A DNA stretch of 64,000 nt, from NCBI GenBank assembly GCA_965200625.1, contig OZ241375.1, forward strand, positions 8,234 through 72,233, read 5' to 3'. The notes beneath the pieces were generated by a model. That model was not told the origin of the DNA, did not search any database, and saw only the letters and a list, made by a program, of their open reading frames with translations. The number at the start of each line of letters is the position of its first letter. Within the stretch, counting starts at the first letter, position 1. This document shows positions 42,812 to 44,212 of this stretch, piece by piece. The position numbers and the translations under genes were made by a program. The stretch comes from Dehalococcoidia bacterium. GTDB taxonomy: Bacteria; Chloroflexota; Dehalococcoidia; Bin125.

Positions 42812-44212
42812 TTACCCCTGCTCCGCCTGCAACCGCCGGCGCAGCTCCGCCATCAAACGATTGCCCTTCTTCACGTTGCAGGTGCGGCAGAGCAGTTGGA
42901 CGTTTTCCCAGATGTGCTCTCCGCCTCTGGAGCGGGGGATGACGTGATCGAGGTCCGTCGTGTCGATCCAGTCTTCCGGGATCACGCGGCGGCAGCCGTT
43001 GCAGCGCTCGTCCTGCTCCCGCCACAACCGCTCAAGGACGGTGAGGCGTGGTTGGGTGATGGGCGTGCCCGCGGGCAAGTCGGTGCGGAGCGGTTCGTCG
43101 GTGCGCTGGATGGGATCGTGATACGGGATGCCGAAGTTGGTCTGGCCCGTGTCATTCTGCATCCGCCTGATGCGCTCATCACAGAGCGTGACGGCCAGGG
43201 ACGACACGTCAATCCCAATCCAGCGCCGGCCCAGCTGCTCCGCGGCGACGCAGGCGGTGGCTCAGCCGCAGAAGGGGTCGAGCACGATGTCGCCGGGGTT
43301 GGAGGACGCCTGCACGATCCGTTCCAGCAGCTTGAGCGGCTTCTGCGTCGGATAGCCAACGCGCTCCGTTTGATTCGTGAGCGGCGCGATGTCGCTCCAC
43401 CAATCCTCCGGCACTTTGCCTCGGCCGAACAGCTCCTCCACTGTTTCCGGCGTGCGTCGGCCTTCCGTTTCCACAGACGGCGCGATGATGCTCTCCGCGC
43501 CTTCGGTCCGCCCCCGACGCGCGATCGTTTCGGCGCTGAACGGGATGCGGACGGCGTCAGCGTTGAAGTTCGCCTGGTTGGACGCGGCGTACAGTAGAAG
43601 AATGTCGTGCTTACGTTTAAAGTGACGCTTGACGTTCCCCGGCCCCGTGTAGCACCAAGCGATTTCATTGCGAAAATTAGATCTGCCGAAGACGGCGTCC
43701 AGGAGTTGTTTCAGGTAGTGGCTTGCAGTGGGATCGCAATGCAAGTACAGACTGCCGGAGGGCTTCAGAATACGCTGCATCTCGACCAGACGCATCGCCA
43801 TGAAGGCCAGGTAGGCGCCCATCTGCTCGCCGGCGGTGGACTCGGCGGTTTCGATCAGGGCGCGAACGGGAGACGCCACGTGGAGCGCATCGAGCCATTG
43901 CCGTTTCACCGACTCTTCGAACGCGCCGGCCGCTGATTCTGCCGCGGTGATCGTGTCGTCCCAGGTCCAGATGTCATTGAAGGACGCGCCTTCCGCGTCT
44001 GAGCCGATCGGCGCGTGCCACATCTTGCCGGTGTTGAAGGGCGGATCGAGATAGATCAGGTCAACGGATTGAGAGTCGATCCCCCGCAGGATCGGCAGAT
44101 TGTCGCTAGTAAAGATGGTGCGGTTGGCGGGCTGCGTGCCTTGTCCGTCCTCGTGCTGCGCGGTGATGCGGCGAGACGGGAAGGGTGGATCGGAGAGGGG
44201 GCTCGTCAACAC
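42812..44212 (-). pseudogene. beta-class DNA methyltransferase (N6-Ade/N4-Cyt, motif IV DPPF) fused in-frame to a C-terminal HNH endonuclease domain, interrupted by an in-frame TGA (43262-43264) inside MTase motif I. The HNH part (42812-43207) also exists as a GTG-initiated ORF.
   Basis: ORFs 43262..44455 (...DLIYLDPPFNTGK...DIVLDPFCG*) and 42812..43207 (HNH: [32 protein letters not shown]) are in the same frame. The 18 codons between them read ATACVAAEQLGRRWIGID, the rest of AdoMet motif I. The MTase start is placed at GTG ~44212 because ORF-track M 44455 would overlap glnB. Confidence 0.65.

Follow-up and report, generated by a model that had tools for sequence, protein, structure and literature searches.

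A DNA methyltransferase-HNH nuclease fusion gene with a premature stop codon in the glnK-addB spacer of a Dehalococcoidia bacterium

Methyltransferases of the beta class (PF01555), among them M.RsrI, M.MboIIA, M.BceJIV and CcrM, have their sequence motifs arranged in a characteristic order in which motif IV (DPPF) comes first, followed by motif X and then by motif I (DPFxGxxT). The gene that is described in this study shares this order and belongs by descent to a family in which such a methyltransferase is fused to an HNH nuclease domain (MTase-HNH). There are nevertheless clear differences from the beta-class enzymes whose structures have been solved. None of the latter has the C-terminal linker and HNH domain that are both present in the MTase-HNH gene, their motif I has Phe/Gly-Gly-Ser where the MTase-HNH proteins have Cys-Gly-Cys, and the particular gene analyzed here is interrupted inside motif I.

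Nuclease and methyltransferase are also combined in one chain, with a single target-recognition module, in the Type IIG/IIC enzymes (MmeI, BpuSI, Tth111II), and these features are shared with the MTase-HNH family. The nuclease of Type IIG enzymes is usually of the PD-(D/E)XK type and located at the N-terminus. In contrast, the MTase-HNH family has a beta-class (Class B) methyltransferase and a C-terminal HNH domain, so that on sequence criteria, which call for a Class A methyltransferase together with a PD-(D/E)XK nuclease, it would not be counted as Type IIG. A REBASE-based classification states that Type IIG enzymes exclusively have Class A (gamma-like) methyltransferase domains (bioRxiv 10.1101/2023.12.13.571470), and a study on the MmeI family describes changes of specificity that are brought about by swapping the target-recognition module (PMC2731913). 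The MTase-HNH family resembles the MmeI family in that its recognition segment is swapped between alleles (L003/L025, see below).

HNH domains with a beta-beta-alpha-Me fold, two CxxC zinc pairs and the D-H...N...N residues occur in restriction and homing endonucleases such as KpnI, Hpy99I and I-HmuI as well as in Cas9 and IscB. All of these features are shared by the HNH domain analyzed here, which differs from these systems in being tethered to a methyltransferase and in having no recognizable DNA-recognition domain of its own. A final group for comparison is provided by fusions of the same methyltransferase moiety with a T5orf172 domain (P0058-P0062, P0065, P0073 and P0083), which are of similar size and show 55-56% identity over 75% of the query, but have T5orf172 (PF10544) as the C-terminal domain where the MTase-HNH proteins have HNH. 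The presence of T5orf172 in place of HNH on a shared methyltransferase suggests that the nuclease module is interchangeable.

In the present study we describe an MTase-HNH gene in a 64,000-nucleotide stretch of a Dehalococcoidia genome, referred to below as the window. We consider it very likely that a horizontally acquired single-gene MTase-HNH cassette was inserted into the glnK-addB spacer of one Dehalococcoidia lineage and was then killed by one C>A transversion, and that what remains is a young pseudogene.

Domain architecture and homologues

The gene occupies one minus-strand frame that begins with a GTG at 44212, ends with a TAA at 42814..42812 and contains a single internal stop codon (Table 1). 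This stop is a TGA (43264..43262) within TGC GGC TGA GCC ACC, where the protein reads DPFCG, stop, ATACVAAE. The translation joined across this stop has a Pfam match to N6_N4_Mtase (PF01555) with an E-value of 7.2e-44 (150.8 bits versus a cut-off of 26.7) over aa 49-337, a region that spans the stop. Over aa 403-460 there are matches to both HNH_5 (PF14279; 1.4e-13, 51 bits versus a cut-off of 27.5) and HNH (PF01844; 1.3e-12, 48.1 bits versus a cut-off of 21.4), and all three matches are above the gathering scores. An earlier note on this DNA had described a beta-class methyltransferase and an HNH domain in one minus-strand frame with a single TGA between them, and this description is confirmed by both the frame and the Pfam matches.

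Table 1. Coordinates of the MTase-HNH gene, its parts and its surroundings in the window
Feature	Position	Strand	Remarks
Whole MTase-HNH gene (probable pseudogene)	42812..44212	-	466 aa if TGA is taken as a Cys codon; range includes the terminal TAA (42812..42814)
Premature TGA	43262..43264	-	Replaces the codon of invariant Cys317 in motif I; homologues have TGC; TGA reproduced in independent assembly L001
N-terminal fragment ORF, 316 aa	43265..44212	-	P0001 in public records; contains motifs IV-VIII and X and the target-recognition region; motif I is cut after its first half
Motif IV (DPPF), catalytic loop, aa 56-59	44036..44047	-	D56, P57, P58 and F59 are invariant columns in alignment A1
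Target-recognition (variable) region, approximate, aa ~190-286	43355..43645	-	From alignment A1; low pLDDT at 189-288; homologous segment swapped between L003 and L025
In-frame segment past the stop, 149 codons	42815..43261	-	Remaining alpha-A and beta-2 of the AdoMet-binding fold (ATACVAAEQLGRRWIGID), conserved linker and HNH domain
HNH nuclease domain, aa 403-460	42833..43006	-	CNGC...DH...N...CRTC-N; zinc (two CxxC pairs) and catalytic (D-H/N/N) residues all intact
Residual HNH-only ORF, 131 aa (P0121)	42812..43207	-	Start GTG 43207; other gene caller: ATG 43162, 116 aa
glnK (P-II), upstream neighbour	44337..44675	-	Pfam P-II, 2.3e-28
addB-type nuclease subunit, downstream neighbour	39620..42799	-	PDDEXK_1
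addA	36618..39623	-	UvrD-helicase and PDDEXK_1
Host-derived part of the glnK-addB spacer	44259..44336	-	Conserved structured element/terminator; marks the left insertion edge
Host-derived 12 nt before the addB ATG	42800..42811	-	TACCCTCAATCC; matches the conserved TACCCTGACCTCCyy of relatives; right insertion edge at the TAA

Motif IV (DPPF, aa 56-59) is located N-terminal to motif I (DPFCG, aa 312-316), and the methyltransferase is therefore of the beta class. It is probably an N6-adenine enzyme, as hinted at by a motif IV that begins with Asp and by a best NCBIfam match to the adenine-specific PRK11524 that, at 108.9 bits, is far below the cut-off of 292 bits. Sequence comparison with the PDB matches the methyltransferase part to M.BceJIV (3.5e-26) and M.MboIIA (8.9e-21), and Foldseek matches its fold to M.BceJIV, M.MboIIA, CcrM and M.RsrI with a probability of 1.0. 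The C-terminal HNH domain is matched by Foldseek to Cas9 HNH domains, including that of GeoCas9, and by NCBIfam to the HNH regions of Cas9d and IscB. An AlphaFold model of the joined protein has a mean pLDDT of 70.9, with values of 80-93 in the methyltransferase core and the HNH domain and low values in the variable middle. The HNH columns that are invariant in the family (C404, C407, D422, H423, N437, C442, C445 and N446) are all present in the window gene.

A homologue search of 5.8 billion proteins yielded at least 8000 matches at E <= 1e-10, of which the best 120 were taken. Almost all of these best 120 are uninterrupted proteins of 410-490 aa that contain both PF01555 and HNH, with named sources among the Chloroflexota, Gammaproteobacteria, Bacteroidia, Treponematales and Ignavibacteria. 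The fusion architecture is thus common, and the earlier view that a methyltransferase and nuclease in a single polypeptide is unusual does not hold. Nor is it the case that methyltransferase and HNH are always separate genes in homologues, which the earlier note had named as an observation that would refute its reading, as the homologues are mostly uninterrupted. The only truncated look-alike among the best 120 of the at least 8000 matches is the 316-aa P0001, which was annotated from the window's own genome.

Homologues share a layout in which a conserved catalytic half at the N-terminus is followed by a variable middle part; then come the AdoMet half and the linker, both of them conserved, and lastly the HNH domain. 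In alignment A1 the window gene is collinear with 25 full-length homologues at 46-66% identity over ~95% of the length, and because this collinearity continues across the stop the arrangement of both domains in one frame is not a product of chance. Family members such as P0002 ("DNA methyltransferase [Chloroflexota bacterium]") and P0079/P0106 ("HNH endonuclease") have the linker QNxTGQTNFGIPYHDP..R.D.P.RTD and the HNH motifs in common with the window gene, but the stop at the invariant Cys is found in the window copy alone. The window locus is consequently a member of the family by descent but, being split by the stop, not an intact protein.

The internal TGA and its consequences

An independent Logan assembly of SRR33960551 (L001) is 100% identical to the window over 42368..45480 (3113 bp), TGA included, and its contig is recorded in 6 samples, which may share one project or population. 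The window is derived from a metagenome-assembled genome and TGA is one base from the expected TGC, which would fit a sequencing or assembly error in a gene that is really intact. Such an error is nonetheless very improbable given the second assembly and its occurrence in several samples, and also given that one base is substituted at a place that is not part of a homopolymer. Substitutions of this kind are not typical of long-read errors. We have rejected assembly error on the strength of the 3113 bp of identity; the sense codon that re-sequencing might have revealed at 43262-43264, as the earlier note had envisaged, is likewise not seen in the assembly of SRR33960551, which keeps the TGA.

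The column that is occupied by the stop contains Cys in 25 of 25 aligned homologues (DPFCGCATACVAAE), and across the best 120 of the at least 8000 matches it is Cys in 118 of 119 cases and Ser in the other one. Motif I thus has Cys at this position and not the Ser/Gly that the earlier note had expected of this motif. Three homologue genes that were read as DNA have TGC (context TGCGGCTGCGCCACC, versus TGCGGCTGAGCCACC in the window), and the lesion is therefore a single C>A transversion. We looked among the homologues for a closer orthologue (>66% identity) and found none, which means that the ancestral codon is read from distant homologues. A metagenome scan for the window allele with NNN at the position of the stop codon returned 0 matches, and hence no intact sister allele.

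The remainder of the gene is well preserved. Among the other columns that are invariant in the 25 homologues, 82 of 83 are kept by the window gene, the sole changed residue being G402E beyond the stop, and there are no frameshifts. The nonsense lesion is therefore young, which agrees with the recent inactivation that the earlier note had suggested from the presence of a single nonsense codon. Identity to close homologues is 0.60-0.63 past the stop versus 0.60-0.68 before it; relaxed selection past the stop was considered as well, but this difference and the one changed invariant residue (G402E) are too weak to interpret.

Translation that ends at the TGA would halt after beta-1 of the Rossmann fold. 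In the AlphaFold model the stop is positioned between strand 309-312 on one side and helix 319-326 plus strand 330-334 on the other, so that the TGA removes this helix and strand and the complete AdoMet-binding fold is not contained in one uninterrupted ORF. AdoMet binding would be lost from the 316-aa product, which is without alpha-A and beta-2, and the HNH domain would be detached from the DNA-recognition module. As modeled, methyltransferase activity of the window gene is lost, since the 316-aa fragment is missing part of the Rossmann fold and there is no start codon that would restore it.

This last point also bears on whether the split could be functional, in that two products, the 316-aa fragment and an unattached HNH protein of 131 or 116 aa, are both made and have independent roles, such as that of a free nuclease or of a remnant that binds DNA. 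Both ORFs are predicted by gene callers, the catalytic and zinc residues of HNH are intact, and re-initiation 55 nt past the stop is conceivable. However, the methyltransferase could not be rebuilt from any start codon in the absence of alpha-A and beta-2, and the search for promoter-like sites came up empty. Visual inspection of the sequence ahead of GTG 43207 and ATG 43162 showed no convincing Shine-Dalgarno motif. A search with the C-terminal part also did not reveal a clear family of free-standing linker plus HNH proteins. In this HMMER scan with the 149 post-stop residues, matches were located at the C-termini of proteins of every size up to ~500 aa, many of them 400-500 aa long, and most of the short matches start at query residue 1, which is inside the methyltransferase fold, and are fragment-like. 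We therefore regard a functional split as very improbable. Low-level read-through of the UGA, or re-initiation at GTG 43207 or ATG 43162, may occur, as the sequence alone is compatible with either.

Decoding of the UGA to yield the full-length protein is a separate matter. A UGA in a column where homologues invariably have Cys represents the classical Sec/Cys pairing and is the formal signature of a selenoprotein search, a hairpin can be drawn at +11..+45 past the UGA, and the 149 downstream codons are intact. The full-length MTase-HNH protein could thus still be made if selenocysteine were inserted for Cys or if there were programmed or leaky read-through, as was implied by the suggestion of a recoding event in the earlier note. 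Against this, dinucleotide-shuffled sequences form more stable structures than the 50-101 nt past or around the UGA (z of +1.1 to +1.45), TGC homologues fold equally well (-20.6 to -23.6 versus -22.1 kcal/mol in the window), and Rfam gives no match at the stop site even at permissive E-values. By these three comparisons, no SECIS hairpin was found 3' of the UGA beyond what composition provides. None of the 118 other homologues that have the motif terminates at this site, and a degenerate DPFCG-TGA-AT pattern has 0 matches in 241 million metagenome records. The 64-kb window, out of a genome of 2.74 Mb, contains no tRNA-Sec gene and indeed no tRNA gene of any kind. The Cys itself occupies the position of the Ser of FxGSG in M.RsrI and CcrM; it belongs to the glycine loop that binds AdoMet and is not known to serve as a redox centre in this family. 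TGA is furthermore an ordinary stop codon in the window, where it ends addB and many other high-GC3 ORFs; the genetic code is therefore the standard one, and an altered code was rejected. Given that RNA folding, Rfam, the homologue scan and the metagenome scan all provide no support for recoding, we consider decoding of the UGA extremely improbable and favour a pseudogene that has been inactivated by the stop.

The site between glnK and addB

Upstream of the gene are glnK and amtB, and downstream are addB and addA, with products that have the domains expected of AddAB (UvrD-helicase and PD-(D/E)XK in AddA, PD-(D/E)XK in AddB). As had been reported earlier, the gene ends 12 bp before the addB start (ATG 42799) and is co-oriented with addBA. 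To place this arrangement in context, we compared it with relatives obtained from a one-genome-per-species scan with AddB, which comprise 20 Dehalococcoidia/Chloroflexota MAGs with an AddB that is 52-64% identical. All 20 have the order amtB-glnK-addB-addA, and none of the 20 has a methyltransferase in the glnK-addB spacer, which measures 90-780 bp in these relatives versus 1537 bp in the window. The spacers of the relatives are variable and contain palindromic repeat units, and one of them has an extra ORF.

Both ends of the inserted segment are delimited by host sequence. On the glnK side, the first ~20 nt past the glnK stop are not conserved, but the core of the structured element (~44259..44315) is nearly identical in 17 related genomes that were aligned, and this places the left insertion edge somewhere in 44258..44213. 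The right edge coincides with the TAA (Table 1). With host motifs on both sides of the gene, the insert therefore measures ~1.40-1.45 kb, of which no more than 46 nt is leader and the rest is the ORF. The GC content of the MTase-HNH gene is 0.61-0.66, with a GC3 of 0.78, versus 0.70-0.75 and 0.87-0.93, respectively, in the flanks. The lower GC, together with the restriction of the insert to the window lineage when compared with the 20 relatives, is taken to indicate a foreign, lineage-specific insertion. Inverted repeats or a target-site duplication were not found at the junctions (~44258..44213 and 42812), and the insert contains a single ORF with no transposase or integrase. A transposon or insertion sequence was rejected for this reason, as the locus has no terminal repeats, duplication or transposase.

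The proximity to addB raised the question of whether MTase-HNH is functionally coupled to AddAB, for instance by feeding breaks to it or by being co-regulated with it. The gene and addBA point in the same direction, 12 nt separate it from the addB start, and there is no terminator in between. Yet the gene is present at this site in 0 of 20 related genomes, and at the five distinct homologue loci that were examined the homologue is solitary among unrelated genes, with addAB nearby in 0 of 5. As the window gene is also inactivated, we see next to no likelihood of such coupling, and the significance that the earlier note attached to a position ahead of addBA is not sustained. Adjacency to addB instead appears to be an accident of insertion into a variable spacer, with no functional coupling.

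The sequence of events that we propose has two steps. A foreign single-gene cassette would have entered the spacer immediately ahead of the TACCCT motif found before the addB start, and a change of the Cys317 codon from TGC to TGA in motif I, where AdoMet is bound, would subsequently have inactivated the gene. A nonsense mutation of this type would be the usual decay of a costly restriction-modification-like or selfish element.

The intact family and its significance

The variable middle of the protein gives an indication of how the intact enzymes may work. In the window protein, which is a mosaic, the target-recognition segment is nearest to a subgroup composed of P0029, P0033 and P0036, and the two ends are nearest to other homologues. 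A second example is provided by L003 and L025, which are from near-identical genomes and carry alleles at one locus that differ only in the central ~450 bp, where identity is 35-82%, versus flanks that are mostly 91-100% identical per 100 bp. This swapped segment is situated between motif VIII and motif X, and we take it to be the target-recognition region of the beta class. A recognition cassette that is swapped while the nuclease remains constant, as in enzymes of the MmeI type and in Type I/III systems, suggests that the HNH nuclease may borrow the specificity of the methyltransferase. By analogy with these systems, we infer that intact members of the family would function on their own as a restriction-modification-like or selfish module, with HNH making use of the swappable target-recognition region of the methyltransferase.

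Existing collections assign this family only in general terms. PADLOC matches are confined to generic Type II, Type III and orphan methyltransferase models, and PHROGs matches to generic methyltransferase and HNH families. We found no description of the MTase-HNH fusion in the literature, its enzymatic activity included. None of the plasmid (72,556) or phage (50,697) records covers >=80% of the protein, and a plasmid or phage origin was rejected since no full-length fusion is present in these records.

A broader interpretation, which we offer tentatively and regard as possible but doubtful, is that the intact family represents an unrecognised single-chain restriction-modification or homing element. 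A beta-class methyltransferase with a swappable recognition segment would direct a C-terminal HNH domain (T5orf172 in the sister proteins), and the element would reach new intergenic spacers as an ORF alone, with no transposase to move it. The window would then hold a freshly killed copy.

For annotation, the result means that this locus should be described as a pseudogene of an MTase-HNH fusion and not as two genes or as an accessory of AddAB. The finding at this locus is real but ordinary. The family to which it belongs, a large one that spans many phyla, is a modestly interesting architecture that is absent in full-length form from the plasmid and phage records examined, and has a recognition region that is cassette-swapped. 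If its members are truly self-contained beta-class restriction-modification enzymes, then the range of single-chain architectures known from Type IIG/IIC would become wider, and compact enzymes with programmable specificity could result.

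The glnK-addB spacer and its two ends

The spacer between glnK and addB is an insertion hot spot. Among the relatives that carry amtB-glnK-addB-addA with no methyltransferase gene between glnK and addB (L005-L024), variable inserts occupy this interval: palindromic units resembling REP or MITE elements (e.g., GGAGCCCCCTCCGTCACTTCGTGACACCTCCCCCAGAGGGGGAGGTC) in L005, L006, L013, L015, L019 and L024, and an ORF with tandem protein repeats in L016. At the glnK end there is a conserved element that is nearly invariant in nucleotide sequence across 17 aligned genomes, even though the AddB proteins of these genomes are only 52-64% identical. 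Its sequence reads GACCGACGGCCnATCCCCCTCCGCGGGGACCGGTTGGGGCGGGGGCAGCTC-loop-GAGCnGCCCCCGCTTCATGCGT, and RNAalifold predicts a fold resembling a three-way junction with 28 pairs, 3 of which exhibit compensatory changes. No credible match to this element was found in Rfam. The element may be the terminator of amtB-glnK, although conserved sequence continues well 5' of the hairpin.

At the other end of the spacer, the conserved motif (GG)TCTACCCTGACCTCCyy lies directly against the addB ATG in almost every one of these relatives, with the window version reading TACCCTCAATCC. A Shine-Dalgarno sequence is absent here. The TACCCT within the motif matches a TAnnnT -10 box located 6-9 nt ahead of the ATG, which suggests, from sequence, that the addB mRNA may be leaderless.

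Neighboring coding regions

A short tandem repeat whose period is 12 nt, DLPPSDLPSDLPSDLPSDLPLSDL, runs in frame within the window addB gene. A mechanically called ORF of 1252 aa (44766..48524, minus strand) is a high-GC artefact, with only its 3' part corresponding to the ammonium transporter gene.

Features of the window and of relative L016
Feature	Location	Strand	Remarks
Conserved element, ~75 nt	window 44255..44330	minus	directly 3' of glnK stop; also in L005-L024 spacers
(GG)TCTACCCTGACCTCCyy motif	window 42800..42811; L005-L024		adjoins addB ATG on 5' side
addB tandem repeat	window ~42330..42410	minus	AddB aa ~130-155
Ammonium transporter gene	window about 44766..46178	minus	PF00909, 2.3e-126
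ORF, ~600 bp	L016:~800-1400		glnK-addB spacer; RFEAVDRRFEA-type repeats

Variation within the methyltransferase-HNH family

The intact fusion homologues P0006 and P0007 are alleles at the same locus of two near-identical genomes (L003 and L025; contigs of 2,343,303 and 2,335,257 bp). Both ends of these alleles are 96-100% identical, while the central ~450 bp (L003:8511-8976) exhibits only 35-82% identity. This central segment is presumed to be the target-recognition region and, on that presumption, the difference would amount to allelic specificity switching.

Sister proteins P0058-P0062, P0065, P0073 and P0083 share the methyltransferase moiety at about 55% identity and have a C-terminal T5orf172 domain (PF10544) in place of HNH, an apparent exchange of the nuclease module. 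A query consisting of the linker and HNH domain matched 14 separate stretches of P0122 (3750 aa), apparently a giant protein containing numerous HNH-like repeats. Finally, the HNH C-termini of P0090 and P0096 depart from the motif as if a frameshift had occurred. P0056 no longer has its HNH domain. These cases suggest that nuclease loss recurs in this family through differing kinds of decay at the nuclease end.
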